From a virus: a DNA stretch of 64,000 bases. Positions within the stretch are counted from its first letter, which is position 1; every line of letters starts with the position of its first letter. Positions 11,781-63,612 of the stretch are shown here, piece after piece. The stretch is from IMG/VR virus record IMGVR_UViG_3300045988_107608, positions 16,948-80,947 of that record; one strand, given 5' to 3'. The position numbers and the translations under genes are program-made. The notes under the pieces were generated by a model. It had not been told where the DNA came from and did no database searches. It saw only the letters and a program-made list of their open reading frames with translations.

Positions 11781-11783
11781 ATT

Positions 11784-34311: not shown

Positions 34312-34313
34312 GC

Positions 34314-34523
34314 CTAATCAGCTTTAATAAAAATAACATCCTTACCATCCTCCCTCTCTACGTGATTACACGGGCCTGCGACTACATCTACCGACCCGCA
34401 TGTAATGTGGTCATTAAATATACATCCTTCACATCCTAAGTCTGGCTCTGGAGCATCCACACATTTTAATCTCACAAGTCCGGCATCAAACACTTCTCCT
34501 ACTTTAAATTCCTTCTTTTCCAT
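34314..34523 (-). CDS. small Cys-rich protein
   Basis: CEGC...C...C pattern. Confidence 0.35.
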   Translation of the reverse strand: MEKKEFKVGEVFDAGLVRLKCVDAPEPDLGCEGCIFNDHITCGSVDVVAGPCNHVEREDGKDVIFIKAD

Positions 34524-34538
34524 ATTTCCTCCTTGTTT

Positions 34539-35141
34539 TTAACTGTTGTACCCTTCTTTGATAATCGAATTTCTACCGGTAGATACCGACTGTCGAAGAT
34601 CGTCATGTACAGAATCTACCGTAGAATACTTGTTTCTGGTTGTAAAAATCACTTCCAGCATCTCCTTGTAATCACCTAAAGCTACTTCATATCTCGGATC
34701 TACTTTGGCTTTTCTTTCGGCCTCGGCATTACTCTTAGCCAGCTCTCGGTCAAGAAGATCTTCTTTGATTCGGTCAGCAATCATATCAAGTTCTTTTTTT
34801 ATGACTTCTCCTGCTGCCCGAAGTTGACCTTCTACGTCGCCAAGCTGATCTTGGACGGTTCCTATTTCTTTCTTTAGGCGATCGTATTCGTTAATCATAC
34901 CCATATCACCTGCATAGCCGGAAAAGTCCTTGATTATTCTGGTTCCTTCTTTAAGGAGTTCAATAACTCGTCTTTTACGTTCTCTGCTTATTAAAGACGG
35001 AAGACGATAATTCATATCCGCCACCGCCTTATCATGTATGGAGTTGATTAAAAACATCTCTCTTTCATCCCCTGCAAACTCAGTAAGAACCAAAAGGAAC
35101 TTACTTATCAGGTATTCGTTTTCTTCTACTGTTAGTCTCAT
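34539..35141 (-). CDS. hypothetical protein
   Basis: 200-aa ORF. Confidence 0.45.
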   Translation of the reverse strand: MRLTVEENEYLISKFLLVLTEFAGDEREMFLINSIHDKAVADMNYRLPSLISRERKRRVIELLKEGTRIIKDFSGYAGDMGMINEYDRLKKEIGTVQDQLGDVEGQLRAAGEVIKKELDMIADRIKEDLLDRELAKSNAEAERKAKVDPRYEVALGDYKEMLEVIFTTRNKYSTVDSVHDDLRQSVSTGRNSIIKEGYNS

Positions 35142-35156
35142 GGTTCTTATTTTTTT

Positions 35157-36290
35157 TTAATACAATGACTGTTCTTCCTTTGTCTCTTGTTCTTGATCTT
35201 GATTGTTCGTAACGTCTTCCACAGTATAGAGCTTGGGCGGCGTCGGCGGCTGGTTGGGGTTCACGAACTTCGTCCCGCCCTCCCCGTACATCCATCCATG
35301 TCCCGGCAGTATCTCTGGGTGGATTGTATTAGTAAGCTCTTCCATACTAACTTGCCTTACCTTCAGTATATGATGAAACACCAGTCCGGCTGTCCTGAAT
35401 GATGTTTTGTTTTCAGTTTTAAACCTATCAAGAGTCTGATACCAATCTTTCCCAAATATCATATACTTATCCAGCCCGTACCTACGAGGATTGTGCAAGC
35501 CTATCATTAACGTACATAACTGACCCAGCGTATCAGACTGGTAAAAATCAGAAAGACGCGGAGGCTGCTCTTGTGGGCTTTTTATCCTTCCTTCTATTTC
35601 TCTGTTGAATTGGGATATGATGAGGAAAAATATGTTTTTATATACTAATTTAGCTTCGTTCATAACCGCCACCAAATCATCTATAGCCGACTTAGGATCT
35701 AATCCCATTCTTTTTATCAAAGCAATATGATCGACTTTAAATATTATAAGACGTTTGTCTTTATGTTTGGTAGCTATATGATACACAGCCGCCTCAAACT
35801 CTTTTACCGTACACGGAGCATCGATGTATATTATATTATTTCTGATTTCACCTTGAAGGATTTCAAACATCCTCATCTCTTCTACTGTATTAGAATCTTG
35901 CCTTCTTAATATTTCAGGAGCCCGCTTTTTCATATCCTGGCTCATTCTACGAAGAAGAAGATCTTGAGGATTCATTTCGAACTCGCAATTAACAAGAAAA
36001 TAATCTTCTGCTTGCGGGTTGATCATCGGATTCATCACATTTTCCAATATCTTTTGGGCCACATACGATTTACCTACAGATGGCCGGGCTCCTATGGCAA
36101 TAGCATGCTGAGGGAAAATACCTCCAAGCAAAGCCTCATCAATATAATCGTATCCGGTTTTAGCGGGGATAAGCTCTCCCCGCCTGTATTTCAAGATATT
36201 CTCATACGCCTCTTCCATAACTTGTTTAGAGGTCTTGAATATCCTTCTTATATCTATCCTATTTGCTATCTCCTCTTGCATTTTTGTCAC
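35157..36290 (-). CDS. DnaB-like replicative helicase (RecA-fold C-terminal domain)
   Basis: TGYDYIDEALLGGIFPQHAIAIGARPSVGKS matches the DnaB consensus TGFxxLD..GGLxxGxLxIxAxRPxMGKT. Confidence 0.7.
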   Translation of the reverse strand: MTKMQEEIANRIDIRRIFKTSKQVMEEAYENILKYRRGELIPAKTGYDYIDEALLGGIFPQHAIAIGARPSVGKSYVAQKILENVMNPMINPQAEDYFLVNCEFEMNPQDLLLRRMSQDMKKRAPEILRRQDSNTVEEMRMFEILQGEIRNNIIYIDAPCTVKEFEAAVYHIATKHKDKRLIIFKVDHIALIKRMGLDPKSAIDDLVAVMNEAKLVYKNIFFLIISQFNREIEGRIKSPQEQPPRLSDFYQSDTLGQLCTLMIGLHNPRRYGLDKYMIFGKDWYQTLDRFKTENKTSFRTAGLVFHHILKVRQVSMEELTNTIHPEILPGHGWMYGEGGTKFVNPNQPPTPPKLYTVEDVTNNQDQEQETKEEQSLY

Positions 36291-36537
36291 CTTTCGTATC
36301 CGACTTGGATCCCCTATTAGCTTTTACTGATTTATACCTAAGACCGTTCTTGGTATGAGAACAATCCTTGCCTTTCCTCCAGCCCTTGCCCTTCTTCTTG
36401 TCCGTTTCGTAGTTTTTACGACCAAGCTCCCGGCGTTTGGCTTTCTGTTCCGGTCTGGCATTTATCTCCTTGTCCTTTTTAGCCTTTTTCTTCCTGGCTT
36501 CTGGATGAGTCCTGTAGTACTCTGTTGATCTGCCCAT
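36259..36537 (-). CDS. small Lys-rich basic protein
   Basis: 92 aa, K/R-rich. Confidence 0.35.
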   Translation of the reverse strand: MGRSTEYYRTHPEARKKKAKKDKEINARPEQKAKRRELGRKNYETDKKKGKGWRKGKDCSHTKNGLRYKSVKANRGSKSDTKGDKNARGDSK

Positions 36538-36589
36538 GTGCTTATATTTTTTTTGATTAATAATAGCACAAAGATAGGCAATTCGCGCC

Positions 36590-37156
36590 CTATTTCAACC
36601 TGCCGTAGCTCATATCAGGATCACACCAGACATACCCATCTTTCTCATCATGGAGATACTCAGGACATCCTCTACATGCGCTACTTCCTGACACTATTTG
36701 ATTGTTCTTATTAGGGCACTTATCTCCAGGCTTATGCCATTCTATTCTCGAACCTGATCGTTCTTTGTTTACATGACAGAACTGAAAGACTTTTCCCATC
36801 GTCTTCTCGCCAAACATACCTATATGTGTGTACTCTTCCGGTATAGATAGAAATTCAGATAAATCTTTATACATCCTTTCCCGTTCCTCCGGCGTAGACC
36901 ATAATCTGTCAAGTTCGGCATGGACTCTTATCTTAAGAGACCTCAGTGATGGCCCCGCAAGCCGGCCTTTAGCTTTTCCCTTATTCGGCCCTGATTCATG
37001 AACACCGACATAAGCGTTGCATGGTTTGCACATCATAACCATCCCTAAGCCTTTTCTGCTATATATTTTATCGGCATTTACCAGCTCAGTTTCTCTTCCG
37101 CAATAAGGACAAATTTCGCCTCTTAAAACCCGTTGTTGGCGCTCATTAAGTTCCAT
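36590..37156 (-). CDS. Zn-finger protein
   Basis: CPYCG...CKPCN. Confidence 0.4.
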   Translation of the reverse strand: MELNERQQRVLRGEICPYCGRETELVNADKIYSRKGLGMVMMCKPCNAYVGVHESGPNKGKAKGRLAGPSLRSLKIRVHAELDRLWSTPEERERMYKDLSEFLSIPEEYTHIGMFGEKTMGKVFQFCHVNKERSGSRIEWHKPGDKCPNKNNQIVSGSSACRGCPEYLHDEKDGYVWCDPDMSYGRLK

Positions 37157-37401
37157 ACCCTATTCTTTTGTTTTTCTTTAAACTTTTCATACAAACTGCT
37201 TTCAGTTTCCATTTCTGAGATCTCTACCTCTACGTCCTCTCTTTTGAAAATTACTTTCTTGGCTGTCGGATACGCACATTTAGAGATACGAATAGCATTA
37301 CGAATAGCGTAAACAAAATACGTTTCTGGTGACGATTCGATCACCACTACCTCATTTAAAGTATTTTTATAATTTTCCATGTTGTTATCTACTTGCTTCA
37401 A
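37123..37401 (-). CDS. hypothetical protein
   Basis: 92-aa ORF. Confidence 0.35.
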   Translation of the reverse strand: MKQVDNNMENYKNTLNEVVVIESSPETYFVYAIRNAIRISKCAYPTAKKVIFKREDVEVEISEMETESSLYEKFKEKQKNRVWNLMSANNGF

Positions 37402-37738
37402 TTATATAACCCGGATGATCTTCACACGCCTCTTTGTATTTGATAAGAAACTTAAGAAATGAATCATAAGACCCCCATCCGTTTTCCGGCTCGTATCTCA
37501 AAAGACTTTTTCTCTTAGAGATCATAATACATATACCTTTTGTAAGTACATTCTTCATCTCATTGGTATATATTTCTTTATACAATTCTTCTGGTCTCCA
37601 AACATAATCGTACAGCGTTTCTTTATTTTCCGATACGAATATTCTTTGTGCCATCTTGTTCATGTTGTGGGTGATGTTTGCAACCCATTCACGATCCTCT
37701 TCTTTCTTCTTACTTTTAATATAAACGTCCAGGCTCAT
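37385..37738 (-). CDS. hypothetical protein
   Basis: 117-aa ORF. Confidence 0.4.
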   Translation of the reverse strand: MSLDVYIKSKKKEEDREWVANITHNMNKMAQRIFVSENKETLYDYVWRPEELYKEIYTNEMKNVLTKGICIMISKRKSLLRYEPENGWGSYDSFLKFLIKYKEACEDHPGYIIEASR

Positions 37739-38729
37739 ACTGTTTTTCTTTTACCTTGTTACTAATTATCAAATCTGCCACATCATCTCCGTCTCCTACA
37801 TTTTCAACATTTTGAAGATAGTCTGATACTTTTATCCTTGACTTCATCATCATCCCATCTATCTTTTTACTCCATGTCTCAAATGCTTGTCCTTTGTCCG
37901 GAAAAGCTACAGTCTTTCTATCTTTTAAAACATCTATCACTTCCGGTCTTAGATTCTGCAACCCACCGGTAGCTACAAATAACTCATCCGGTTTATTCAC
38001 AGCGCATATAATAGCCGTCTTTTCTGATTCCACCAGATTAACCACCTTATCCGGATACTGGCTTAGAAGATGCTCCCCGAACAGGCATTGTCTAAACAAG
38101 AAGTCCCTTGCATGCAACGAGTGATAAAACATAACATGAGGCCGCTCATTGTCACCGTCTTTTTCTTTCACTCTTTTTACATCAATCTCATTCCCCTGGC
38201 TGTCGGTCTTTATACAAAAGTCCATGATCTTGCCGGTTCTGCATACAAAATCTTTGTCTATCTGCCAGAATATACAACACCCTTTCCATCCCCATAAGTC
38301 CATTGTTCCGACATGATACCTTCTGAACACATCAGATACCCTTTCTTTTCCCCATAGAGACGATAAAAATCTAAATACGGTGTTTCTATCGTCTGGAACC
38401 ACAGTCCTCTCAAACTCGCTAAAAGGTATGTAATTTACAACGTCAGGATTTACAGGAGGACGATAAGCTCTTATACACTTGTTTCCCGAAATCCAAAGAT
38501 CTTTGTCACCTACATCCTTGCCGGTAGGTCGTTTATCGTAACCGCAAGTCCGTTCATGATCGCATCTTCCGAACTCGTTGCCAACAACCTGACCTGTTGC
38601 CACATCAATATAAGGAGTGAGGCACCGGCTTTTCCCGCAAGCTGGGCAGGTTAGCTTCAGTCGGCTCCTGCCCGGCCTGCGGTCAAGTTGAAACCGAGGT
38701 ACGTTTTCGTATTTTCTAAAATCAAGCAT
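37716..38729 (-). CDS. putative DNA primase (zinc ribbon plus TOPRIM-like)
   Basis: N-terminal CPACG...C...C zinc ribbon. VNLVESEKTAIIC and AFPDKGQA resemble the TOPRIM Glu and DxD regions. Confidence 0.45.
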   Translation of the reverse strand: MLDFRKYENVPRFQLDRRPGRSRLKLTCPACGKSRCLTPYIDVATGQVVGNEFGRCDHERTCGYDKRPTGKDVGDKDLWISGNKCIRAYRPPVNPDVVNYIPFSEFERTVVPDDRNTVFRFLSSLWGKERVSDVFRRYHVGTMDLWGWKGCCIFWQIDKDFVCRTGKIMDFCIKTDSQGNEIDVKRVKEKDGDNERPHVMFYHSLHARDFLFRQCLFGEHLLSQYPDKVVNLVESEKTAIICAVNKPDELFVATGGLQNLRPEVIDVLKDRKTVAFPDKGQAFETWSKKIDGMMMKSRIKVSDYLQNVENVGDGDDVADLIISNKVKEKQYEPGRLY

Positions 38730-39072
38730 TTTTAACTCCTCTCATCGCCTCTATGATTCTATCTGCTATAGTTATAGACCATGACACCACATCTGGTACA
38801 TATACTCCGCAATCTATTTCACCTTTTCTATTTTGTGCTTTAACAAACTCAATAGAATAAGCCTTGATAAGATCGAATCTACGTTGCTCCCAGTCTACAT
38901 CTTTGTTTTCGTCATTTACAGGAAGGGTATCGAGATAAAAATTTAAACTCTCACTTATCACATTCCCATTATCACCATAGAACTGTATTCTGTCATGGTC
39001 GCTTCTTGTAGTTGAGCTACTGAAAGTGATTACGTCTATTATCTCTCCTGTTCTTCTAATTTTTCTTTTCAT
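38722..39072 (-). CDS. hypothetical protein
   Basis: 116-aa ORF. Confidence 0.4.
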   Translation of the reverse strand: MKRKIRRTGEIIDVITFSSSTTRSDHDRIQFYGDNGNVISESLNFYLDTLPVNDENKDVDWEQRRFDLIKAYSIEFVKAQNRKGEIDCGVYVPDVVSWSITIADRIIEAMRGVKNA

Positions 39073-39302
39073 ACTCTTCTTGTATTTCTGACCAATATAG
39101 GCATTATTATTTCGATGGTCTTGCCATATTTCTTATGAGATGCAAGTACACATATTGCATATTTATCTCCTATTTTCAAATCTTTCGATAATCTTAATCT
39201 CGAACCCCTTTTGATGTTAATAAAATAACCACCAAAAGGATTGATGCATATCGGTTTTACGATTTCTATATAATCTCCTTCAGGAATAACAATATCGTTC
39301 AT
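39069..39302 (-). CDS. hypothetical protein
   Basis: 77-aa ORF. Confidence 0.35.
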   Translation of the reverse strand: MNDIVIPEGDYIEIVKPICINPFGGYFINIKRGSRLRLSKDLKIGDKYAICVLASHKKYGKTIEIIMPILVRNTRRV

Positions 39303-40615
39303 ATTATGAATCTTTTAGACATTTCCTCTGCAATATCATACACGACCGTATGATCCTCTTCATTGTACGGCTTATTGATATTCAGCACTCCTTTTCTCAC
39401 TTTGAACTTCTTATCTTTTCTAAGGTGATTCAACATACCTTGTTGGAACACGCAGTCCGCCTTTTCAAGTGCTATACTGTCTTCTGTCCATTCTTTCAAC
39501 GTATATCCTTTGCTGCTCGTGCTTTTTGGAGAAAAGTTCATAATACGTGCATCAATCCCATACCATGCTTTAACCATTCTTCTTTCAGCTTCTAATTGAA
39601 ATGCGTATGATTCCCATATTCCCCCTGATTTAAAGTCGAGAATAACCACTTCTTCCTTCTCCACGTCTCTTACCTCCTTCTTCGGATCACCTTTTTTAAA
39701 CTGCCCTGTAGCCCTTTGATACACGGCTCCAAAATAACCTTCTTCTTTGTATTTGAATGTCATTTTAACCATCGCATCTATCGGCGTAGCTACTAAATAG
39801 TCTTCTAATGACAATATTCTTTCAATCATCATCGGCTTAACCTTATACTCTGAACAAAATTTGGCAAACTTCATAATTCTGACAATCATATCATCAAGAT
39901 CATCAATACTGTTAAAAAACCGATCAAGATTTTTCTTAGATATTTTCAGCTTGCCTTCTTGCACTGTCTTAACTACAAAGCTTCGATTTAAGACCATATC
40001 TCTACCTGTTAGGTACAATCCGTACAGATAGTGCATGATCGTTCCCCTGTCGGCTTCATACTGTGCCACCTCTTCCGGATTGCGACCAAGCATCTTCATC
40101 TCTTGCTTCCATTCCTGAAGTGCGGTCTTATCATCTACATACCCATCTTTGATTAAAGTTGTTACCGAAGCATATATCTTGGCCGTTCCATCATCCATCT
40201 TCCTTACATAAAAACGATTGTCGTCTAATGTCAATCTTACGAATTTGGGAGTCTCAATCTTCTTTAACTCATCACAGATATAAAACGGTTCTAACGTTTC
40301 CTGATTTTCTGTAAACGGATTCGAATCCTCTTCTCCAGGGTTAGGAGCGGCTTCCTCCGCCGGAGCTTCCGGTTCCTCCTTCTGGGCCTGCTCTGTCTCA
40401 GGCGCCGGCTCTTCAACTACTGGAACCTGTCCGCCTCTTTCTGCTATGTCTCTGTTCTTTATTAAAGACATAACCTCCTTCTTCAACTGCTCTGGTGTTT
40501 GGTTAGGATCTGACACCGACATCACAACATCGTTCATTCTAAACAACGTATTTCCTTCTCCTTCCACCATAGGGACAAATCCTAAATCTGTCAATATTTT
40601 TATTTTCTCTTTCAT
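39299..40615 (-). CDS. hypothetical protein with an acidic Pro/Glu linker; possible PD-(D/E)XK-like C-terminal region
   Basis: VVILDFKSGG...QLEAE resembles a D-x-K nuclease motif. Weak. Confidence 0.3.
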   Translation of the reverse strand: MKEKIKILTDLGFVPMVEGEGNTLFRMNDVVMSVSDPNQTPEQLKKEVMSLIKNRDIAERGGQVPVVEEPAPETEQAQKEEPEAPAEEAAPNPGEEDSNPFTENQETLEPFYICDELKKIETPKFVRLTLDDNRFYVRKMDDGTAKIYASVTTLIKDGYVDDKTALQEWKQEMKMLGRNPEEVAQYEADRGTIMHYLYGLYLTGRDMVLNRSFVVKTVQEGKLKISKKNLDRFFNSIDDLDDMIVRIMKFAKFCSEYKVKPMMIERILSLEDYLVATPIDAMVKMTFKYKEEGYFGAVYQRATGQFKKGDPKKEVRDVEKEEVVILDFKSGGIWESYAFQLEAERRMVKAWYGIDARIMNFSPKSTSSKGYTLKEWTEDSIALEKADCVFQQGMLNHLRKDKKFKVRKGVLNINKPYNEEDHTVVYDIAEEMSKRFII

Positions 40616-40771
40616 GATCTTCCTCTAATCAATTCTTCTTTAATACAATGTAACACTGTTTCCACTTCATCTTTATCTCTATCTTTCACTGCGATAGCTA
40701 TATCCTTACCATAACTTTCTCTCTGTATGTGAGCATAAAAGATAGTTTCATCGTCAGCTTCTATTCTTATT

Positions 40772-41296
40772 TTATAAAGTTTTCTCATATCTGTCAATTA
40801 TTTCAATAATTAATCTACCTCTTTCTTTAATCATTCCCCTGCTTTCCATATCCAGCACCTTCTTTACCGCATACTTCCACACAAAAGGAAATTCTGTTTC
40901 AAGTTTATCAAATTCCATCCGGTCAAGATACATGTCGAATACCGTATGCTCTGATTCATGAAGGAAAACTATATTATCCCTGCAAGTAGCAACCGACTTA
41001 TATATCCTTTTCGGAAGTATGTGACATACGTTACATACTGTAGGAAGATGAATAGCCCTACCAGTCATAGACATCCGAATACTATTTAACTCCTCCAACA
41101 TAAGACGAAAAAACCCGGATAAATCCGGGTTCTCTAACTTTTTCTTCTTGCTGCTGTTTTTAATGGATGTAATTCTGTTTTTTTTCTTCGGAGTCAACTC
41201 TTTGCTCCTGCAAGCCTGGCATAAGTCATGACTTCTTATCATCACTTTTCGTCCGCATCGTTCGCAGACGTATAGCTTCTTTTCCTTGCTTTCCAT
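40772..41296 (-). CDS. Zn-binding protein
   Basis: CERCG...CQAC. Confidence 0.4.
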   Translation of the reverse strand: MESKEKKLYVCERCGRKVMIRSHDLCQACRSKELTPKKKNRITSIKNSSKKKKLENPDLSGFFRLMLEELNSIRMSMTGRAIHLPTVCNVCHILPKRIYKSVATCRDNIVFLHESEHTVFDMYLDRMEFDKLETEFPFVWKYAVKKVLDMESRGMIKERGRLIIEIIDRYEKTL

Positions 41297-41481
41297 TCGA
41301 ATAATAATGATATTATTGAAAAGAACAATCCCGCTGAAGCCAGTAGATAAGGTACGTTCATTAATAATTTAGATACCTCGTCTGTCTTAATCACTATCAG
41401 AAGGAAAGCGCCTGCTGAAAGCAATGATATTATCGCCACAACAAGCGCTATGTTGGAAACTACATCAGCCTTACTCTTCAC
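41242..41481 (-). CDS. small two-TM membrane protein
   Basis: Two hydrophobic helices. 79 aa. Confidence 0.35.
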   Translation of the reverse strand: MKSKADVVSNIALVVAIISLLSAGAFLLIVIKTDEVSKLLMNVPYLLASAGLFFSIISLLFEWKARKRSYTSANDADEK

Positions 41482-41968
41482 TCTTCTTCTCGCCTAATTT
41501 TTCAGCTCCCTTCTGAAGATCGTATTTGAATACGTCAATAATCTTCGTTTCAGCAATAGACTCGCAATTCCAGTCTCCTAACGTACCCTGCATACCTTTA
41601 GTCAACACAGCTTCGGCATCCTTAGGATTGCCGGCCTGGATATACATATAGCATGGAGTTTTCTTTTCTTTACCTTTCTTTTCATCCAGTGTAATGTAAT
41701 TCACCTTACACTTATACCAGTACTCAGCTTCTCCGTTGAAGAAGATTTCCGACACTTTAATAGGATTAATTTTTACAACCTCGAAAGAATTGTACAAATC
41801 CTTGAAGATCTCCAACGATCTTGATTCTGCCTCTGTGTAAGACAAGGCATCCACTAAATACTTTTCAGTTACTTTCTTTTTTTTGCCGTTCTCGATATTA
41901 TCAATCTCGGCTTTTACTGTGATTTCAAACCAACGATTCATGTCTATATTTTTATTCAAATTAATCAA
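41471..41968 (-). CDS. hypothetical protein, translationally coupled to iscB (ATGA overlap)
   Basis: 165-aa ORF whose start overlaps the iscB stop by 4 nt. Confidence 0.45.
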   Translation of the reverse strand: MINLNKNIDMNRWFEITVKAEIDNIENGKKKKVTEKYLVDALSYTEAESRSLEIFKDLYNSFEVVKINPIKVSEIFFNGEAEYWYKCKVNYITLDEKKGKEKKTPCYMYIQAGNPKDAEAVLTKGMQGTLGDWNCESIAETKIIDVFKYDLQKGAEKLGEKKSEE

Positions 41969-43191
41969 TCCATTTCCTTTTGTACCATAAAGCGTTTACA
42001 CCTTGATAATTTCAATTTCTTGTATGTAATATCTCTTTGGTTTTTACCATCAATATCTCGAATATTAAAACTACCGGTTTTACGCCTTGCAAATATAAAG
42101 TAATAACTGTTTTCAAACATAACCCTATCAAACAAACGGAAACCAAAAACTTCAAATGGAGATTGATTTAACCTCTTGATTCCTCCTTTTGGAATCTTTT
42201 GTTTATGGATCTGACGATTATGTCTTCTTACTAATCTTACTTTATAATAATATCCTAACCTTATAGCATCAAAGTTTTTAGAAATAACAAATGCATCGAA
42301 AACATGAGATTTTTCAATACCATGTTTAATCCTATTGTATTTTGTAACATAACCGAAAGTCATAGAAATGTTGTCGTATTTAGATTTTAGTTCTTCATAC
42401 AATCTCCATTTCATTATTCCCATTACGGCTGCGTCGCGAAGCGACTTGCCTCTTCTGATTTTTAAATCTATATTACCTTTATGGTATTCTTTATGACAAG
42501 TTTCACATAAGGTAATAAGATTAGATGGGGAATCTCCACCTGTCTTTCGTGATTCAATATGATGAACATTCAATACTGGGTCTTTTGACTTTCCCTTGCA
42601 ATGCTGGCATTTATGTCCATCTCTTGCTAAAACATATTCCCTAACGTTCCAAAATCCAAGTTGATCACCCTCCTGATATTCTTTACCTGATATATTAGGA
42701 TTGTTAATCTTTTGAGTATCGAATTGAGCTACTTCAATAACAATACGGGATACAGACAGTATAGAAAAAACATTATCAATAACACGAATATGGGCGTCTA
42801 TTTTGTACTTCACCGAAGGTGCTACCCATCCGGGACGCCTACTTTTTATTCTATTGTTAAAACGATGTTTTCTATGTCTCAATCTATTCCGTCTTGTTTT
42901 TCGTAGCTCTCTTCTGGTAGACAAAAGATCTACGATATCATTTCTAAGAATTACTTCACTGCTGTAAAGTTCTTTGCTTTTCGTTGTAGCTGATAGACCA
43001 ACGTGTTTGGTCCCAGCATCAACGCCTAACACAATTTCTTGTTTGTAATCAGATGTGACGTACGTTAATTTGATGGTAAACGGACATAGGTTCACAACAA
43101 CTGCCTTTTTGTCTTTAAGCAGTCGTCTTACCTTACCATGCCTTGTTGTAGGCATCATAGGTTTACCATTTATGTCTTGTACGTACACCAT
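41965..43191 (-). CDS. iscB: IscB OMEGA RNA-guided nuclease (PLMP domain, RuvC-I/II, HNH, RuvC-III)
   Basis: N-terminal KPMMPTTRHGKVRRLLKDKKAVVV (PLMP domain). LGVDAGTKHVGLS (RuvC-I Asp). Arg-rich bridge helix RRELRKTRRNRLRHRKHR. IVIEVAQFD (RuvC-II Glu). HNH: CQHCKG...VHHIESRKTGGDSPSNLITLCETCHKEYH. SHVFDAFVI (RuvC-III). 408 aa with no REC lobe. Confidence 0.8.
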   Translation of the reverse strand: MVYVQDINGKPMMPTTRHGKVRRLLKDKKAVVVNLCPFTIKLTYVTSDYKQEIVLGVDAGTKHVGLSATTKSKELYSSEVILRNDIVDLLSTRRELRKTRRNRLRHRKHRFNNRIKSRRPGWVAPSVKYKIDAHIRVIDNVFSILSVSRIVIEVAQFDTQKINNPNISGKEYQEGDQLGFWNVREYVLARDGHKCQHCKGKSKDPVLNVHHIESRKTGGDSPSNLITLCETCHKEYHKGNIDLKIRRGKSLRDAAVMGIMKWRLYEELKSKYDNISMTFGYVTKYNRIKHGIEKSHVFDAFVISKNFDAIRLGYYYKVRLVRRHNRQIHKQKIPKGGIKRLNQSPFEVFGFRLFDRVMFENSYYFIFARRKTGSFNIRDIDGKNQRDITYKKLKLSRCKRFMVQKEMD

Positions 43192-43647
43192 ATCTACAAA
43201 CGTTTTTAATGTTTATTCAACATAAGTCAGAGTAAAACTCTGTTAGTACCCATCGCCAATGTTATTTAAGGTTTTTCGTAAGCAACACTGTTCCTGAATA
43301 CCAGAACTGTTTAATCACCTACCTTAGAGCTACAGACTTGGGTAAATATCCGTAGGTAACTATCTATTCTTAAATAACGTAGTGTTTGTTTCAACACTTA
43401 GGCTAATAATCGGAATAGCTTTTGGCTATTATGCATAATACAATACAAATTGGTTATGATTTGTATGAGTTATGTATTATTCTCGATTATTTACTATCGT
43501 GGCCACGAAATACTTACACCCCTCTAAGTGCGTCAGGGCTTCAATCATAGCTTCTTTTATCTCTTTTTCTTCCATTTTGTTTGTTTTTTGGACAAAGATA
43601 TGTCTTTTGATAATAAAAAAGATTCAAAATGATTTAATTTAGCTTAA
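43192..43647 (-). ncRNA. candidate IscB omega-RNA (ωRNA) region
   Basis: 456 nt with no ORF, immediately upstream of iscB on the same strand, in a genome where most intergenic gaps are under 60 nt. Contains several local hairpins (cagag ttt actctg; cctac...gtagg). Exact ωRNA ends not determinable by eye. Confidence 0.4.
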
Positions 43648-44316
43648 TTACGGCTCTTTTGATTCGTCCGGTATAGGCATGTCAAACTTTTTTCTGATAA
43701 ACGACTCTGTTTCTTCATTGAATGGATAGGCCTCCTTAATAAAACTCATAGCTACCTCCATATCACCGTCTGCTATATCTTTATACCTTTCAAAGATACC
43801 AATCAGGTCATTGTTATATGAACGCTCTTGTTTTATGTTGTACACGTATTTCAACACCCTGTCTTTAATTTCATTGGCATTTTTCAAAGTGTTATTGAAG
43901 GAATTTATACTTTCCAATTCTGGATCTTGGTTTTCCTTGTTTACCTTATCAAACTCTTCTTTGCTATACCCCGCTTCCCCTTTAATAGCCGGGCAAACAC
44001 TTTCTTTTATGATCCAAAACTGTTCATACGATCCTGTCAGAAACCTTGATTCTATTTTAAATGCATTATATTTAACAAGCAAATTAGCCACCTCAGTTGC
44101 ACCTTCTATGGTTCTAAAACCGATGCCGACATCTTTTAACATAAATACTGGAACTCCCGTTCTTGGATACACGACTTCTTTTTCGTTCTTTATATTCCAA
44201 TTTTTAGCTTCAATTGGAATACCCTTACCAACAAGCTCTTTGTCTATATACAGACTTATCTCTTCGTCTGTCAATGCCACAATCTCATCTCTGCTTAAAT
44301 CAAAAACTGTTTTCAT
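43648..44316 (-). CDS. hypothetical protein
   Basis: 222-aa ORF. Confidence 0.45.
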   Translation of the reverse strand: MKTVFDLSRDEIVALTDEEISLYIDKELVGKGIPIEAKNWNIKNEKEVVYPRTGVPVFMLKDVGIGFRTIEGATEVANLLVKYNAFKIESRFLTGSYEQFWIIKESVCPAIKGEAGYSKEEFDKVNKENQDPELESINSFNNTLKNANEIKDRVLKYVYNIKQERSYNNDLIGIFERYKDIADGDMEVAMSFIKEAYPFNEETESFIRKKFDMPIPDESKEP

Positions 44317-44516
44317 TTCTTTTTATTTATTAAATTAAACAATCTACCTCTTTGTTCAGGCTCCGTATATTCCACCCATATATCGGCTGCCACATTTCTA
44401 AGAAATTCCATAAAGTCTTGATGATCCCTGTATTCAGCAGAATCAACTTTTCTCACAAAACTTAGAATTTCCTTTAACATCTTATTGTTTTCTTCAAGAA
44501 GTTCTCTGTCGGTCAT
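44313..44516 (-). CDS. hypothetical protein
   Basis: 67-aa ORF with ATGA overlap. Confidence 0.35.
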   Translation of the reverse strand: MTDRELLEENNKMLKEILSFVRKVDSAEYRDHQDFMEFLRNVAADIWVEYTEPEQRGRLFNLINKKK

Positions 44517-44634
44517 AACCTTTCATATTTTCTTCTTAACTCATTTTACCCATTTGGCATTATCAGGTATTAAATCCTTAAATTCTTCTGGGATTTTCCC
44601 TTGACGCCACTTCTATATCTTGTTTCATATCTTT

Positions 44635-44886
44635 TTAATTTTTAATTAATTCAACTCCTATAATATCTTCGTAATCAATATAGTGTATCATTGAAACACC
44701 GTTGTCATCATTAGCCATTATTTCAACACAAGCAGAACATCTATTGAATGCACCTTCGATTGTTATACCTGTTAATTGCCTAAAGAATCCTAAAAATTTC
44801 TTTGGCCTGATAATCCTAATACGGACAAGATCATTCCAAGTTATTCCTTTATATTCACAAATAGATTTAAACTTCTCGGCTGTCAT
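44635..44886 (-). CDS. hypothetical protein
   Basis: 83-aa ORF. Confidence 0.35.
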   Translation of the reverse strand: MTAEKFKSICEYKGITWNDLVRIRIIRPKKFLGFFRQLTGITIEGAFNRCSACVEIMANDDNGVSMIHYIDYEDIIGVELIKN

Positions 44887-44905
44887 AATTCGATTATTTT
44901 AGCTG

Positions 44906-45190
44906 TTAGTCATTTTTTGGAATCCAGTTATCCGTATCACAGTGAAAGCAATATCCGGTTTTAGGATGCTCCGCACCGTCTTTAGCTCCGCAGGTTCCGC
45001 AATAATATTCCTTATCATATTCTGGGGAAAGACCTTTATTTCGTTCTTTGATAACAGCTTTTCTTTCTTCGAGCATCATCATTTTATCAGGATTACGACT
45101 CAAATAAAACTTTCTGACTTTATGTATTTGCTTATCAAACAGATCATCGGACTCGGCAATTTGTTTTGCTGTATATTTACTCATGCTCAA
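44906..45190 (-). CDS. small Cys-rich protein
   Basis: CGTCG...CFHC zinc ribbon. Confidence 0.4.
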   Translation of the reverse strand: MSMSKYTAKQIAESDDLFDKQIHKVRKFYLSRNPDKMMMLEERKAVIKERNKGLSPEYDKEYYCGTCGAKDGAEHPKTGYCFHCDTDNWIPKND

Positions 45191-45343
45191 TTATTTTTAA
45201 AGTTTATCTATTATTTTGTCACCCATTTCCTGCCATTCATCACTCACGCTTATAACCAATCCTATGACAGTGAATGATAATAACAACGTAAAAATAAGTC
45301 ATAACAGAAAGCAGATAAAAACACATACATACCTCATGATTTT

Positions 45344-46090
45344 TTAGTTGTTAGATAAAAGCAAAATCGGTTCATTTGACTCCGCAATTGCTTTTATTTG
45401 TTCTGGATTGATAAAACTCTTGACTTGTTCACTTATCTTACAAATAGATTTGATCATATCAACGAATAATTTTGAGGTGCATTCGTTGCATTCCACTTCC
45501 ATTACCGGCTTATATCGATTGTATGACATACCTGCTACACAATTCAGCCAGTGCGCATAGGTTCCTTTTTCTGTATTTAACCTGCTGTATTCTACTTTTG
45601 TCTCTCCATTTCCATATTCAATTACTCTTTTTAGAAATGGTTTTGCATAAACACTAAAACCGAAAGGTTGGGTGTTTAAGGCATCTAAACGGGAAGTTCC
45701 ATCCCTCCATTCTCCATTTTTATCGCCTCCTGTCCATTCCTTAGAGGGGTTAGGGACAATATTTCCGTTTTTGTCATAGGAAAACATGCAATTCGTTTCC
45801 AGTTGATACTTAATAATAGGCACTTCTTCTACTATTTTATAACTCAAACATCTCTTTAAAACTTCCCTGATTTGACTTTCCAAATCAGAAAGTGCTATAC
45901 TATTGAAATATCCTTCGTTGCCTAATCTGTTTGTAGGTAATTTGATCCCATAAGAATGAATCTTATCCACATCTTCTTTTGACAAGGTAGTGGTAAACAC
46001 TCCTTCTTTGGTGACATTCACTTTAACAGTTACAGACAAACTGTTATTAGCGTTCTTTTCCGTTATATTTAGTGTTGTTAATGCTGCCAT
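45344..46090 (-). CDS. hypothetical protein
   Basis: 248-aa ORF. Confidence 0.45.
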   Translation of the reverse strand: MAALTTLNITEKNANNSLSVTVKVNVTKEGVFTTTLSKEDVDKIHSYGIKLPTNRLGNEGYFNSIALSDLESQIREVLKRCLSYKIVEEVPIIKYQLETNCMFSYDKNGNIVPNPSKEWTGGDKNGEWRDGTSRLDALNTQPFGFSVYAKPFLKRVIEYGNGETKVEYSRLNTEKGTYAHWLNCVAGMSYNRYKPVMEVECNECTSKLFVDMIKSICKISEQVKSFINPEQIKAIAESNEPILLLSNN

Positions 46091-46108
46091 AATCAGATCT
46101 TTTTAAAA

Positions 46109-46360
46109 TCAATTCGAATAAATATAATGCATTCCTGCTTCGTATATTTTGTATATATCAGGATTCTTCTTATCCTCTGGCTCCAATTCGCTTTCCTCAC
46201 GAGTGTAATCCCATTCAGGATTATAATACAAATCCTCATCTGTTTTCTCTAAGGAACAATCTTTCATTAGATTCATATTTTCTCCCCAGACTGCAACTTC
46301 TTTCCGTTGCTCTTCTTCTGTCATAAGGGATATTTTGTCTTTTAATTCTTTCCAGGTCAT
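46109..46360 (-). CDS. hypothetical protein
   Basis: 83-aa ORF. Confidence 0.35.
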   Translation of the reverse strand: MTWKELKDKISLMTEEEQRKEVAVWGENMNLMKDCSLEKTDEDLYYNPEWDYTREESELEPEDKKNPDIYKIYEAGMHYIYSN

Positions 46361-46384
46361 GATTTCTAAAATATGATCAATAAT

Positions 46385-46768
46385 TCATTCTACATCAAAA
46401 AGCTGATCTAACACCAATAATTCGGCATTCATATCTTCATCTTTCGGGAAACGAACTTTTATATTTCCAAACTTAGATGTCTTAAACAAGATGTAGGGGT
46501 TCATATCTTCGGCAGTCACCGGCTTATACTCCTTAACTTCCGACATCTTGAGATACCAGTCGCCTATTTTTACAAACCCAGAAAAGATAGAACACAGATG
46601 CGCTTTTACGGACTGTATCTCCTTTTTATCTTTGAAAGGTATAATTTCGTCCTTTCCCCTTATCCTGATTGACAGAAAAGGACGAATGTTATCTGTTTCA
46701 TTTTGAAATTTGAAGCCTGTTATAGCTTGTTTGGGGATTCTTCTTCCCATTAATATGAAATAAGCCAT
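46385..46768 (-). CDS. hypothetical protein
   Basis: 127-aa ORF. Confidence 0.4.
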   Translation of the reverse strand: MAYFILMGRRIPKQAITGFKFQNETDNIRPFLSIRIRGKDEIIPFKDKKEIQSVKAHLCSIFSGFVKIGDWYLKMSEVKEYKPVTAEDMNPYILFKTSKFGNIKVRFPKDEDMNAELLVLDQLFDVE

Positions 46769-47077
46769 TGCAATAAGTTGTTTTACTTTGTATTCTATAA
46801 TCCTACCAACAAGTTCCCCGATGATAGAAAATATTCTAATTCATAGAGGAAAGAAAAGAAGTAGCTCTTTCAAATTTTCTTCTTAGCTCATTAGACCATT
46901 GATGATCATAATCTGCCAATAATGATCCCATTTCCATTATTAAGGAATAAACTTCTTCTTTTCTTGCTAAAAAAGATTGTTTGTCTTTTTCTTTTAATGT
47001 TTTCATGACTGTAACTTAAAAATGAATAATTAATTGATTTATAAAAAATGTGTTAAAATGACATATAAATGCCTTGA

Positions 47078-47875
47078 TCAATTGGACACAAATGTACAAG
47101 TTTTATTAAGATACCCTTCTGTCATCTCTATGAAATTCACACAATCTAATTTGCTTAACTTGTAAATCAATGCCGGATTGTGTACTATGGCTATAATTTG
47201 TGTTTGTGGTTTATGGAATGACAATACATTATAAATTTGCATTATGTTGTCAATGTCAAGATTCCTATCTGGCTCATCCATGAGAACCGTGTATTCAAAA
47301 CTGCTTTCTGTTAATGTTATGCGGTTTCTTTCATAATACTTCAACAGGTTATCAATTCTTTTAATCCAAAACGCATTTGATTTTTTCTTGTATTCTACAA
47401 GATCTTGTATTGGAAATGTATAATCCTTTTGACCGAACATTAAATTGAAAAGTGATTCCAATGATAACACCACTTTCTCTCCATAAGATCTTCGAATATT
47501 ATTCACATACAAATCTAAGTTGCTGATGTTTTTTAATACACTATCTCGATTCATCTCCGCCGATGGCAATAAACGGAATACTTTCCCTGCATAATCGGAT
47601 GATATGTCAATCCCATCAAGAACCTTGTCATCATCATCAAATATAGGTGGAAAATCCAGTGCCTCGATCGGTATTTCAGAGCACATGGACTTCTCGCATA
47701 ACGCATACATTGATATGATGTTAAGCAAGGTTGATTTTCCACTACCGTTTTTCCCTATAATCACATTCACTCCTGGCTTGAAAATAAATTCTCTGCCATT
47801 TTCAAATGCTTCTATATCCGAAACATATTCAAATGGAGTTTTTGTATTGTCTTTTATTTTTACTGATGTTATCAT
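47078..47875 (-). CDS. ABC-type (AAA_21-like) ATPase
   Basis: Walker A GKNGSGKST, Walker B TVLMDEPDRNLD, H-loop IVHNP. 265 aa. Confidence 0.7.
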   Translation of the reverse strand: MITSVKIKDNTKTPFEYVSDIEAFENGREFIFKPGVNVIIGKNGSGKSTLLNIISMYALCEKSMCSEIPIEALDFPPIFDDDDKVLDGIDISSDYAGKVFRLLPSAEMNRDSVLKNISNLDLYVNNIRRSYGEKVVLSLESLFNLMFGQKDYTFPIQDLVEYKKKSNAFWIKRIDNLLKYYERNRITLTESSFEYTVLMDEPDRNLDIDNIMQIYNVLSFHKPQTQIIAIVHNPALIYKLSKLDCVNFIEMTEGYLNKTCTFVSN

Positions 47876-47886
47876 TGTAATCCTTT

Positions 47887-48723
47887 TTAAAAATCAATTA
47901 CCGCCCGAACCCTGCTACTGTTGTACTTGTCACTGTAGTACGCGCTACCAATGGAGAAGTCCACGTACCACGCGACGCTCGGGCTGCTCTCGGTACTGGA
48001 CCTATACCACGTCGAGGAGAGGGGAGATGCCGAAACATAAGCGAATGCTTTGTTTAGTTCGTCCATATAATGGGCCATTAAATTTAATTGACCAAGAGAT
48101 GGTATATACTCGCCATCTTTCAGCAAATTTTTCAACTTTGGATTTCTGGCCACAAGGCGTTCCGTATTGCCGCGTCCGTCAATGTCAAACAGCGCATCAC
48201 ATTTACGTTCGTAATATGTCTCACTTCCGGATTTTTCACGGCTATCATCGTCAAGCAATTGTACGCTATCATGCTCCGTCAGTGAGATAGCAAACGATAC
48301 GTCTTTGTGCTTTAATCCGATATAACGCACATTCTTTTTGAAATTCTCTCCAGTAAACGGCTCAGCGTGTCCGTTTCCGTAGATTAGATACAAACCATCT
48401 TTTCTTGATGGTACTCTATTTTCACATACACATCTTTCATTTTTGGGTCTTACAATTATGTTCAACTCATTCAACACATGATCTTTTATGACTTCCTTGC
48501 TTATTCTTTCTACAAAACCATAATCCCTTTGTTTAAGTTCGTCATTCACCATACATCTAATCCAATTTTCTATCTGATTGTTTCCTCCGTATGTATTAAG
48601 CATACACTGTTTTACAAGTTTTTCCAATAATGATTCTATGTTTTTGATTATATCTTCTTTGGTAAGGTGAAGTTCATTTAATATACAGTTCCTTACTGCC
48701 TTGTATTCTTTACTCGTGCTCAT
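47887..48723 (-). CDS. hypothetical protein, partner of the ABC ATPase
   Basis: 278-aa ORF 11 nt upstream of the ATPase gene. GNGHAEP and LFDIDGRGN motifs of unknown meaning. Confidence 0.45.
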   Translation of the reverse strand: MSTSKEYKAVRNCILNELHLTKEDIIKNIESLLEKLVKQCMLNTYGGNNQIENWIRCMVNDELKQRDYGFVERISKEVIKDHVLNELNIIVRPKNERCVCENRVPSRKDGLYLIYGNGHAEPFTGENFKKNVRYIGLKHKDVSFAISLTEHDSVQLLDDDSREKSGSETYYERKCDALFDIDGRGNTERLVARNPKLKNLLKDGEYIPSLGQLNLMAHYMDELNKAFAYVSASPLSSTWYRSSTESSPSVAWYVDFSIGSAYYSDKYNSSRVRAVIDF

Positions 48724-48746
48724 AATATTCTATTATTTTTTTTCAA

Positions 48747-49409
48747 TTAGTCCCATCCTCCAGTAGTGTACAAAGATACATCTTCCTCCTCTACATTTAC
48801 ACCTTTAAGAGCCTGTAGAAGTTTTTTCTTTGTCTCCCTACACATATTGTAACCATATCCCTTATACCGATATGAGCGCTCCCATGTGCTTACCGGGAAA
48901 GGAATATTTTCGTCAATTACCAGCCTCTTCATGTGAAGATGTTCGAAGAATTTCTCATGATAGAGTAGTTTGTACTCGTATGCTACTATACTTGCAGATG
49001 AGAATGGAAAATAATCATCTTCCTTTTCTTCGTATTTAGGCTCCTTATAGTAAGCCATTTTTGCTACAGTAAAGTCGAAGCTCCTGAGAATCTCTTCTGG
49101 CTTTCCAAACTCTGATTCTATGAACTCTATCCATACCTTTTCTCCCTCTTTCTGGAACGCACATACCTTCTCATTTCTGTACTTAAATTTCCATCCTTCT
49201 TTCTGATGTTTTTCATCATTGAACAAATCAACAGCTTCCTGAAAATCGCTTTCGCTTTCAAAGAAAATATCAATGTCTTTTACTTTTTCTCCGGAAAGAA
49301 TATTCTTAAAACATCCACCAGCGATGAACCCTTTGTGACCTTCCATATACTTGTCAAGCCATCTTATTTGCCAGAAATTATCTGGAGTATCTATTATAAA
49401 ATTGTTCAT
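48747..49409 (-). CDS. Pol-beta-superfamily nucleotidyltransferase (minimal NTase)
   Basis: IAGGCFKNILSGEKVKDIDIFF fits the hG[GS]x9-13Dh[DE]h NTase signature. 220 aa. Confidence 0.5.
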   Translation of the reverse strand: MNNFIIDTPDNFWQIRWLDKYMEGHKGFIAGGCFKNILSGEKVKDIDIFFESESDFQEAVDLFNDEKHQKEGWKFKYRNEKVCAFQKEGEKVWIEFIESEFGKPEEILRSFDFTVAKMAYYKEPKYEEKEDDYFPFSSASIVAYEYKLLYHEKFFEHLHMKRLVIDENIPFPVSTWERSYRYKGYGYNMCRETKKKLLQALKGVNVEEEDVSLYTTGGWD

Positions 49410-49427
49410 ATCGTTTATATTTTACTA

Positions 49428-49682
49428 TTACCAAGCGAGATAAAAATTCCGCTTTACAATAATACAGTGAGTGTAATTGCTCAGGTCGATTCCGTTGTCC
49501 GTAAATGTATCCAGGACTCGTTTTTCCACGTATTTGAGTTTTACCATTATCCCCTTCTTAAACACTTCTATTAACTTCTCATTGCACTCAATAGGTCCAA
49601 TAAGACAGTATCTATTCGAAGGACTGTCTGATATACAATATGTCTGACATCCTAACATGTTGCTTAAAATTACTTCGTTCAT
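49428..49682 (-). CDS. hypothetical protein
   Basis: 84-aa ORF. Confidence 0.35.
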   Translation of the reverse strand: MNEVILSNMLGCQTYCISDSPSNRYCLIGPIECNEKLIEVFKKGIMVKLKYVEKRVLDTFTDNGIDLSNYTHCIIVKRNFYLAW

Positions 49683-49689
49683 AATTTCT

Positions 49690-50166
49690 CTATGATTCTA
49701 ATATGGTGTCTACAAACTCCGTTATTTTATCAACGGATTCTTTTGATAAGGTATATCTTCTCCAATCCCATCTAAAATGCGCTTTTGGGAGATTTTTAGT
49801 AGAATATTTTTCATTTCCGTCCTTGTTAGTCCATTCGTAATTATCCTCTGGATCCGCCACTTTTATCCCCGATTTAGGTCCGTTACGAAAGCTATATAGC
49901 ATTCTTATAACCGATTCAAAATCCGAACCTATATCAAATAGCATATGATACACCTTGTTTATTAAAGCCCTATCAGCTTGTTCCAAGTCTTCACCAAACA
50001 ACTCTCTTACACTCCAATTTTTCATTTCTGAATAACGAATGAAATTAAGTTTCCCTTTTTCTATATTAGGATTTTTTCTTGATAATACAAGCTCCAAATC
50101 TTTCACAAATGATTCTTTTAGCTTCTGTTGTCCTAACAAGGCGGTGTATTTACTTACTATATCCAT
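49690..50166 (-). CDS. hypothetical protein
   Basis: 158-aa ORF. Confidence 0.4.
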   Translation of the reverse strand: MDIVSKYTALLGQQKLKESFVKDLELVLSRKNPNIEKGKLNFIRYSEMKNWSVRELFGEDLEQADRALINKVYHMLFDIGSDFESVIRMLYSFRNGPKSGIKVADPEDNYEWTNKDGNEKYSTKNLPKAHFRWDWRRYTLSKESVDKITEFVDTILES

Positions 50167-50465
50167 TATCCAAAGTTTTTTAATATTGCTCCAAACGAAT
50201 CATATTTAACCCCTAATATATCATGTGCCTTTTGGGATCCACATTCACATTTTCCTACCTTCTGTCCTGATCCACACCCGCATAAGCCTATTCCCCAATG
50301 GTTGACACAGTGGTCGCAGCAGTAGGACTGGTGAAGCCATGTGGCATCACCAGTATCCAAATCCAATTTTTCAAATGTTTCCCAAAACATGCTATTCGAA
50401 GCACTATTATCAAATCTGATAGTGACTGCACCGCATTTACATTTTTGTATGTATTCTATTTTCAT
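50166..50465 (-). CDS. Cys-rich small protein
   Basis: CKCG...CCDHC...CGCGSG...CEC. Confidence 0.4.
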   Translation of the reverse strand: MKIEYIQKCKCGAVTIRFDNSASNSMFWETFEKLDLDTGDATWLHQSYCCDHCVNHWGIGLCGCGSGQKVGKCECGSQKAHDILGVKYDSFGAILKNFG

Positions 50466-50525
50466 ATATGTTCCATTTTCAAAATATCTGGGGACAGATA
50501 TTCTTGCAACTCCAATTTGCGTACA

Positions 50526-51257: not shown

Positions 51258-51261
51258 GATC

Positions 51262-63419: not shown

Positions 63420-63494
63420 GTTGTTTATGTTTTAATTGTTATACATTCCGATTACTACTAATCTATAGAATATAGTTTTCAACTCTCAACCTAT

Positions 63495-63612
63495 TGAATT
63501 TTGTAGAATAAACTCACATTATGCTGTTTTAAAGCACTGTAAGTCTTAATTTTGTAGGAAAAACCTACATAATGCTGTTTTAAAACGCTGATCTGTTGAA
63601 TTTTGTTGGAAG
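63495..63612. repeat. about 2.5 tandem copies of a ~50-bp repeat (iteron-like)
   Basis: tgaattttgtagaataaactcacattatgctgttttaaagcactg, then ttaattttgtaggaaaaacctacataatgctgttttaaaacgctg, then tgaattttgttggaag. Confidence 0.7.

Follow-up and report, generated by a model that had tools for sequence, protein, structure and literature searches.

RNA-guided nucleases of the IscB family are encoded by ISC elements, for which N/ATGA has been reported as the target, the slash marking the junction (Kapitonov, Makarova & Koonin 2016, PMC4810608). Most known IscB elements carry no TnpA transposase in cis, they are preferentially co-oriented with the gene upstream, and the transposon-adjacent motif (TAM) of GstIscB is TTCAT, which corresponds to ATGAA on the iscB strand (Meers et al. 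2023, bioRxiv 10.1101/2023.03.14.532601). Here we describe an IscB element in a 64,000-nucleotide stretch of phage DNA (positions 16,948 to 80,947 of the IMG/VR record IMGVR_UViG_3300045988_107608), which is referred to below as the window. Our analysis indicates that the segment 43490-41942 on the minus strand is very probably a non-autonomous element of the ISC / IS200-IS605 family which consists of an ωRNA and iscB only and which acts through the mechanism proposed below. It is an ordinary ISC/OMEGA unit and not a domesticated nuclease with a fixed guide.

Among the described systems, ISGst5 of Geobacillus stearothermophilus, which encodes GstIscB, is also a non-autonomous element of the IS200/IS605 family with the ωRNA upstream of iscB and a guide that derives from the flanking DNA at the ωRNA end. 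In both cases the TAM, which is predicted for the window element, abuts the other end and the element is co-oriented with the upstream gene. The two proteins are of near-equal size and their catalytic residues are numbered almost identically (D58 and H209/H210 in GstIscB; D58 and H210/H211 here). However, ISGst5 sits in a bacterial chromosome whereas the window element resides in phage genomes, where no cognate TnpA has been found. Furthermore, the window element and its relatives (the window clade) keep only ATG in the flank, where it usually doubles as a start codon, and the window ωRNA has an expanded 5' hairpin.

The ISC2 elements (PMC4810608) are comparable as well. They are about 1.3-1.7 kb long, encode only an IscB with an HNH domain, have subterminal imperfect hairpins, insert 5' of ATGA without target-site duplication and have been defined through polymorphic filled and empty sites. 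The termini of the window element, which have subterminal hairpins but lack terminal inverted repeats, are of the kind found in ISC and IS200-IS605 elements. However, the ISC2 examples come from cyanobacterial, proteobacterial and other cellular genomes (PMC4810608) while the window clade occupies at least 18 gut-phage sites, and deletions adjacent to the left end are frequent in the window clade.

Structures of the OgeuIscB-ωRNA complex (7UTN, 7XHT and 8CSZ) share the domain order, the catalytic residues and the HEARO-type ωRNA with the window element, and the two proteins match over residues 1-333 (E 1e-44 to 1e-61). OgeuIscB is 496 amino acids (aa) long, whereas the window protein has 408 aa, lacks an aligned stretch of about 30 aa after the bridge helix and has a divergent C-terminal domain. 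The TAM of OgeuIscB is NWRRNA, as against a predicted ATG for the window IscB. The intronless homing systems of T-even phages (Seg and Mob) provide a further parallel, since there too a nuclease gene lies between conserved phage genes, is present or absent among relatives, is found at boundaries of mosaic exchange and is predicted to cut the nuclease-free allele in co-infection. However, Seg and Mob rely on protein-based recognition and have neither transposon ends nor multiple sites, whereas the window element would use an RNA guide and a TAM.

Boundaries and anatomy of the element

Boundaries of the element were determined by comparison of more than 100 related phage loci. The parts of the element and its immediate surroundings are listed below in 5' to 3' order, with window positions.

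43593-43628 (-): promoter-like motif of the Bacteroidota type, TTTG-N24-TAtcTTTG, upstream of the gene remnant; conserved in csAssE-Sib
43477-43575 (-): remnant of a disrupted small phage gene, 32 codons, with its own stop inside the element
43491-43506 (-): predicted guide GTGGCCACGATAGTAA, 16 nucleotides (nt) of phage flank directly 5' of the scaffold
41942-43490 (-): whole ISC-type (IscB) element, 1549 nt, from ATAATCGAG... to ...ATATAGAC
43228-43490 (-): predicted ωRNA scaffold, comprising helix P1, the expanded 5' hairpin, the HEARO core (43457-43242) and a 3' hairpin (43242-43228)
43192-43227 (-): linker between the 3' hairpin of the ωRNA and the iscB start codon, near-invariant among copies
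41965-43191 (-): iscB coding sequence, 408 aa, with PLMP domain, RuvC-I (D58), bridge helix, RuvC-II (E153), HNH (H210/H211/N224), RuvC-III (H296/D299) and a clade-conserved C-terminal region of about 75 aa
41942-41964 (-): terminal tail of the element, 3' of the iscB stop, conserved in copies at different sites
41939-41941 (-): ATG, the predicted TAM (target N/ATG) and start codon of the DUF4494 gene

Conservation between copies begins at ATAATCG (43490), 13 nt 5' of ATACATAACTCATACAAATC, despite unrelated flanks, and at the 3' side it extends 23 nt beyond the iscB stop to end in ...ATATAGAC at 41942. A 10-nt subterminal imperfect inverted repeat (42016-42007 / 41963-41954) is 90% complementary. 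The preliminary description of the locus had read the iscB stop as overlapping the next start codon (ATGA), leaving no room for a right end of an insertion sequence. Our analysis does not agree with this reading. The iscB stop TGA is located at 41967-41965 and the ATG that opens the next gene follows only 23 nt later, at 41941-41939, so that the element tail (41964-41942) separates the two; the conserved 3' end at 41942 and the subterminal inverted repeat supply the right end. In all relatives the DUF4494 gene starts at the ATG corresponding to 41941-41939, and a TTG at 41968 is merely a mechanical start of the open reading frame (ORF). The terminal motifs of the element occur singly in the window, and repeated intergenic motifs were rejected as a cause of cassette shuffling.

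The long gap upstream of iscB (43192-43647) does measure 456 nt and does contain the ωRNA, as described earlier, but it is not a uniform non-coding spacer, because 43575-43477 is a gene remnant. It is composed of 157 nt of phage DNA, which hold the promoter-like motif, the 32-codon remnant and the guide, and of 299 nt of the element with the ωRNA. The disrupted small gene is intact (86 aa) in csAssE-Sib, in 11 IMG/VR contigs and in a further sibling contig (L145). The promoter-like motif at 43628-43593 could be the source of a read-through transcript that yields the ωRNA, and the linker at 43192-43227 is possibly the 3' end of the ωRNA or a translation-initiation region. Across the window 11 occurrences of TTTG-N15-25-TAnnTTTG were counted, where shuffles predict 5.1, and this excess is a weak hint at a Bacteroidota host. 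A scan for sigma-70 promoters gave 11 matches against 8.4 in shuffles, which is no better than chance, and was not used.

The IscB protein

The 408-aa protein is an intact IscB. Pfam assigns residues 2-175 to RRXRR, the IscB/IsrB family (5.6e-56), and residues 195-238 to HNH (3.6e-9). In a single-sequence phmmer search of the PDB chains the top matches are all IscB structures (3e-46 to 1e-44), followed by IsrB and then by small Cas9-like proteins, and a profile made from the window protein and nine IscBs that are 47-86% identical to it improves the best match to 9e-64. Alignment of ten IscBs, including the window protein and others 47-86% identical to it, reveals that D58, E153, H210, H211, N224, H296, D299 and the zinc cysteines are invariant. 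The same catalytic positions (D58, E153, H210/H211, N224, H296 and D299) align with the equivalent motifs of the solved IscBs, and residues 2-110 align to residues 4-114 of OgeuIscB-type chains, including the KPMMPT/KPLMPT motif. The hallmarks claimed earlier are thus borne out: every motif quoted in the preliminary description is present and agrees with both the Pfam families and the solved structures, and the catalytic residues that had been assigned by eye hold in the alignment.

The distinction from Cas9 also stands. Cas9-like PDB chains match the window protein weakly and only over residues 47-239, whereas the IscB alignments are collinear, and no recognition (REC) lobe aligns in the 408-aa protein in either the phmmer or the profile search of the PDB. 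Direct-repeat families are missing from 34000-52000, which covers about 8 kb around the gene, no arrays were detected by TRF, and no cas families turned up in the Pfam scans of the window ORFs. The missing arrays, cas families and REC lobe rule out a type II CRISPR-Cas9 system.

Comparison with 53 other intact copies gives ratios of nonsynonymous to synonymous divergence (dN/dS) of 0.05-0.14, with dS up to 1.7, and iscB is under strong purifying selection. Premature stops occur in about 6% of the related copies. Taken together with the compensatory changes in the ωRNA described below, the low dN/dS indicates that protein and RNA have both been kept functional across the clade.

The ωRNA scaffold

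A complete match to the Rfam family HEARO (RF02033, model positions 1-211) is located 5' of iscB and on the same strand, at 43242-43457. It scores 106.3 bits against a gathering score of 83 (E 3e-22) and HEARO is the sole Rfam family detected across the 64-kb window. HEARO is nowadays recognised as the IscB ωRNA. This covariance-model search upholds the earlier proposal of an ωRNA upstream of iscB on the iscB strand. RNAalifold on 39 non-redundant copies predicts 53 pairs, 17 of which show compensatory double changes, and covariation is also seen in the 5' hairpin of the element (arms ATACAAAT and ATTTGTAT). On the evidence of this match and of its covarying helices, the RNA is a HEARO-type ωRNA, whose predicted first hairpin is larger than that of the Rfam consensus.

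In the Rfam alignment helix P1 falls on AUAACCAA (43457-43450), with three non-canonical pairs. The first seven bases of the element, AUAAUCG (43490-43484), are fully complementary to CGAUUAU (43413-43407), which lies directly 5' of the conserved UAGCC. In 30 loci ATAATCG and CGATTAT form seven Watson-Crick pairs out of seven, and compensated variants exist: ATATCCG with CGGATAT (7 loci), GTAACC with GGTTAT (2 loci) and ATAACCC with GGGTTAT (in a mini-element of L145). The minimum free energy fold of 43490-43195 likewise pairs nt 1-7 with nt 78-84 (z = -3.6). Because P1 is formed by the first 7 nt of the element and covaries, the scaffold would begin at the element boundary, 33 nt upstream of the Rfam match, and the guide would be the flank.

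Insertion sites and target motif

The element is present at at least 18 different sites in related human-gut phage contigs of about 80-190 kb. At all of these approximately 18 sites the right flank starts with ATG, and at 15 of them this ATG opens an ORF (41-919 codons) that is co-oriented with the element. At three sites the ATG opens no gene, and one of these (site I) adjoins a tRNA gene. The presence of ATG where no gene opens indicates that it acts as the target motif rather than as a start codon alone. For four of the sites (F, G, K and Q) empty alleles were recovered as well. They read flank/ATG and lack precisely the element (1514-1551 nt, with termini of the same kind), and the target shows neither duplication nor deletion. 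Position 4 of the flank, after the ATG, is never C, and ATG alone is conserved; the predicted TAM is ATG(A/G/T).

At site I the flank reads ATGG in all six filled alleles (L096, L097, L100, L101, L102 and L107) and GTGG in all nine empty ones (L103, L104, L109, L110, L115, L117, L119, L121 and L124), which may be a TAM-escape polymorphism. The site occupied in the window is itself dimorphic. It is filled in the window and in 12 IMG/VR contigs, while 11 IMG/VR contigs and csAssE-Sib carry the intact small gene. In the phage csAssE-Sib (OR575929), whose flanks are about 88-90% identical, 144 nt of the intact small gene stand in place of window positions ~41982-43489, and homology to the window breaks off at about 43490 and about 41981.

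From these alleles it is evident that the element is mobile or polymorphic. The view that it is fixed in a phage operon is contradicted by the 18 or more sites, by the four clean filled/empty pairs and by the dimorphism of its own site, although it is indeed not a fresh insertion, as copies at site A differ by dS up to about 0.2. Because co-orientation with the upstream gene has been reported for IscB elements, being embedded in an operon is the normal state of the family.

The predicted guide and its natural target

In canonical IscB elements the guide is derived from the flank, and a guide of about 16 nt, as in characterised IscBs, is assumed here. The sequence upstream of ATAATCG (43490) differs between insertion sites, and the predicted guide of the window copy is therefore the phage flank GTGGCCACGATAGTAA, of about 16 nt. 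In the sibling contig L145 (141.6 kb, flanks 96% identical) the intact small gene reads GTGGCCACGATAGTAA/ATGAAG, a match of 16/16. This allele, which was recovered solely in a second metagenome scan, suggests that the left junction of the window copy is itself a legitimate N/ATGA site and that its guide has a natural, TAM-flanked target. In the other 12 intact alleles of the small gene the guide match is followed by ACGA instead of ATGA; the difference is synonymous (AAT versus AAC codon). A search of IMG/VR for a TAM-bearing intact allele gave a single match, which was unrelated and due to chance.

The guide had been proposed earlier to be fixed and to lie at the 5' end of the ωRNA. The 20 nt directly 5' of the Rfam match (ATACATAACTCATACAAATC) were considered for this role and rejected, since they are the same in all copies whatever the flank and hence belong to the scaffold; the real guide would be the flank upstream of 43490. 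Within the window ATACATAACTCATACAAATC finds only itself, with no second match at up to 3 mismatches, and in IMG/VR it occurs in 43 stretches, nearly all of them copies of the element with many unrelated upstream flanks. The suggestion that the guide is aimed at a host or a competitor phage is likewise not supported.

Junctions of the window copy and adjacent deletions

Judged from its junctions, the window copy is more than a plain insertion. On the right it joins the ATG of the DUF4494 gene, whereas its left junction is located about 181 nt upstream, inside the small gene. The left junction thus comes from one site and the right junction from another, and the approximately 181 nt between them have been lost. 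The most likely cause of this loss is recombination between two copies at neighbouring sites, or else an adjacent deletion of the transposase type.

Another locus, unoccupied in the window (10411-11783, plus strand), contains small genes including a 91-aa ORF at 11505-11780. In at least eight related contigs an IscB element is found here before the ATG at 11784, where it replaces 0.27-1.4 kb to its left. At least five left junctions are seen (window 10411, ~11140, ~11503, 11514 and 11518), some of which directly precede an ATG in the window sequence. This pattern fits recombination between neighbouring copies and likewise adjacent deletion. A few junctions fit neither of the two. At the left junction in three contigs (L061, L042 and L045), the first 13 nt of the element are repeated in tandem (TTAATCGAGGATA TTAATCGAGGATA).

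Abundance, relatives and derivatives

In IMG/VR, 300 stretches match the element and several contigs carry two or more copies. The best 120 of 8000 proteins (E <= 1e-20) are 78-96% identical to the window protein and are encoded on contigs of up to 159 kb. By comparison, a search of one genome per bacterial species (185,579 species genomes) yielded nine related loci only, among which no source element was identified. The closest of these is on a 20-kb whole-genome shotgun contig of 'Vibrio olivae' (NZ_JBHMEP010000019.1, L135), with an IscB 79% identical; this is an odd host for a gut-phage clade and the contig may be of phage origin or a contaminant. An IscB 69% identical is present on a contig of a Phocaeicola metagenome-assembled genome. 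GenBank phages contribute 31 records with homologues of less than 60% identity, which are annotated as HNH endonuclease or hypothetical protein.

One contig (L057) carries an element near-identical to that of the window (dS 0.008) beside a left flank that is just 26-79% identical, which indicates that backgrounds have recently exchanged the element within a region of high mosaicism. Reduced and altered forms of the element are also present. The reverse-complemented contig L145 has at 3225-3584 (around window position 40790) an ωRNA-only mini-element of approximately 370 nt, located before an ATG and without iscB, which resembles the PATE derivatives of IS200/IS605 elements. Two copies at site A (L038 and L010) are internally deleted, so that about 300 and about 930 nt remain within unchanged flanks, which indicates that copies decay in place. 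In six other contigs (L077, L083, L084, L086, L091 and L095) the usual stop of iscB has been lost and the ORFs of 415-546 aa read through downstream; these copies have a different 3' end, …CACGGAC/ATG.

Proposed mechanism and alternative explanations

In the mechanism proposed here, the ωRNA would be made by read-through transcription from the upstream phage unit, and the flank guide GTGGCCACGATAGTAA together with the TAM ATG(A/G/T) would direct the IscB-ωRNA complex to cut matching DNA. The DNA to be cut would be either the excision joint or the element-free allele in a co-infecting sibling genome, the latter being the most plausible in a phage. Recombinational repair from an element-bearing genome would then restore or copy the element.

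Several observations weigh against this account. Residues ~334-408 of the protein, which presumably form the TAM-interacting domain, are kept within the clade but do not align in sequence with the solved IscBs, and P1 is merely 5/7 paired in 26 loci of two sub-families. No Y1_Tnp (TnpA) domain was detected by Pfam among the 77 window ORFs of at least 90 aa, and none by tblastn in 1.12 Mb of related loci, the latter, with the TnpA sequences of IS608 and ISDra2 as queries, being a weak negative; it is conceivable that TnpA is supplied by the host. The excision joint GATAGTAA/ATGAATCG is absent from IMG/VR and from the metagenome contigs. For several left junctions at sites A and E, none of the sampled empty alleles has an adjoining ATG. 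In 12 of the 13 sampled intact alleles of the small gene the guide match precedes ACGA, so that most known empty alleles would escape cutting. In addition, most contigs come from one dataset and the allele counts are not independent.

A further-reaching reading, which we put forward only tentatively, is that IscB-ωRNA spreads mainly as RNA-guided homing between co-infecting gut phages, as a gene drive without a transposase of its own. As joint parts of this possible scenario, the use of a start ATG as TAM would make the elements slot in before genes, the surviving empty alleles would be resistance alleles with a broken TAM (GTGG beside the tRNA gene and ACGA within the small gene), and recombination between copies at neighbouring ATGs would delete small phage genes. 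The ATGG/GTGG difference at site I and the ACGA in 12 of 13 small-gene alleles suggest that TAM-bearing empty alleles are rare, which is the outcome that homing pressure would produce; as these contigs do not represent independent samples, this is a lead and not a result.

It is unlikely that the element is a stranded passenger, structurally intact yet inactive in the present genome and inherited vertically with the phage. Such a passenger would be in line with the failure to find TnpA or excision joints and with the TAM missing beside the guide match in 12 of the 13 sampled intact alleles, and the approximately 6% of copies with premature stops and the mini-derivatives indicate that decay does occur. 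However, a dN/dS of 0.05-0.14 over dS up to 1.7 and the compensatory changes in the ωRNA indicate that both have stayed functional across the clade, a TAM-flanked natural target exists in L145, and the L057 element (dS 0.008) in its diverged left-flank background points to recent transfer.

Very improbable is a domesticated, immobile phage nuclease with ATACATAACTCATACAAATC as a fixed guide against host, competitor-phage or self DNA. It is true that ATACATAACTCATACAAATC is the same in all copies bar two transition polymorphisms, that it has an exact 20/20 match in an unrelated 21-kb viral contig (L048) and that no TnpA was found. However, the match in L048 precedes AAAAAG and not ATG, and by a rough estimate about 0.4 such matches are expected by chance. 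Moreover, ATACATAACTCATACAAATC is located inside the conserved element, in a covarying hairpin enclosed by P1, which identifies it as scaffold, it has no second match in the window within 3 mismatches, and the element is mobile or polymorphic. Least credible of all is a protein-only, free-standing HNH homing endonuclease of the T4 Mob/Seg type for which the upstream RNA structure would be irrelevant, because, even though the GenBank phage homologues are annotated 'HNH endonuclease' and the element, in the manner of free-standing homing endonuclease genes, lies between phage genes, the protein has the full IscB architecture (split RuvC, bridge helix and PLMP domain), the ωRNA is conserved and covarying at every site and the element ends are precise and TAM-linked.

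Other features of the window

Two TnpB genes are present on the minus strand at 8663-9925 and 24771-26027 (420 and 418 aa), with Pfam matches to OrfB_IS605 (4e-22 and 3e-20) and a Cas12f1-like TNB domain. Together with iscB, the 64-kb window therefore carries three OMEGA-type nucleases. No TnpB ωRNA families reach the Rfam gathering score in the window. A Tad2-like (Thoeris anti-defence 2) domain (5.6e-11) is found in one of the 38 ORFs within 70-37156. The window also encodes a PD-(D/E)XK nuclease (29614-30633), a DnaB-like helicase (35157-36290), an SPFH/flotillin protein (31143-32843), an EcoRI-like match and a 2140-aa ORF (13271-19693). A 51-nt tandem repeat (2.3 copies, 78% matches) is located at 63494-63611, and no tRNA genes were found in the window.

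Significance of the element

The window adds no new mechanism; its element is a textbook ISC/IscB OMEGA unit, which is useful for its phage setting. The literature searched yielded no account of IscB elements that proliferate in phage genomes, and 'non-restorative homing' has so far been mostly conceptual for phages (review PMC13565253). The element belongs to a compact (408 aa) and apparently active IscB family that is abundant in a human-gut phage clade, and a small nuclease with a short TAM is of engineering interest. The clade supplies many natural filled/empty pairs, a predicted minimal TAM (ATG) and guide-target pairs, including that of the window copy itself. With these, 'non-restorative homing' of OMEGA elements between co-infecting genomes becomes directly testable. 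If the homing reading is true, the element would represent a natural RNA-guided gene drive, with resistance alleles, in phage populations.

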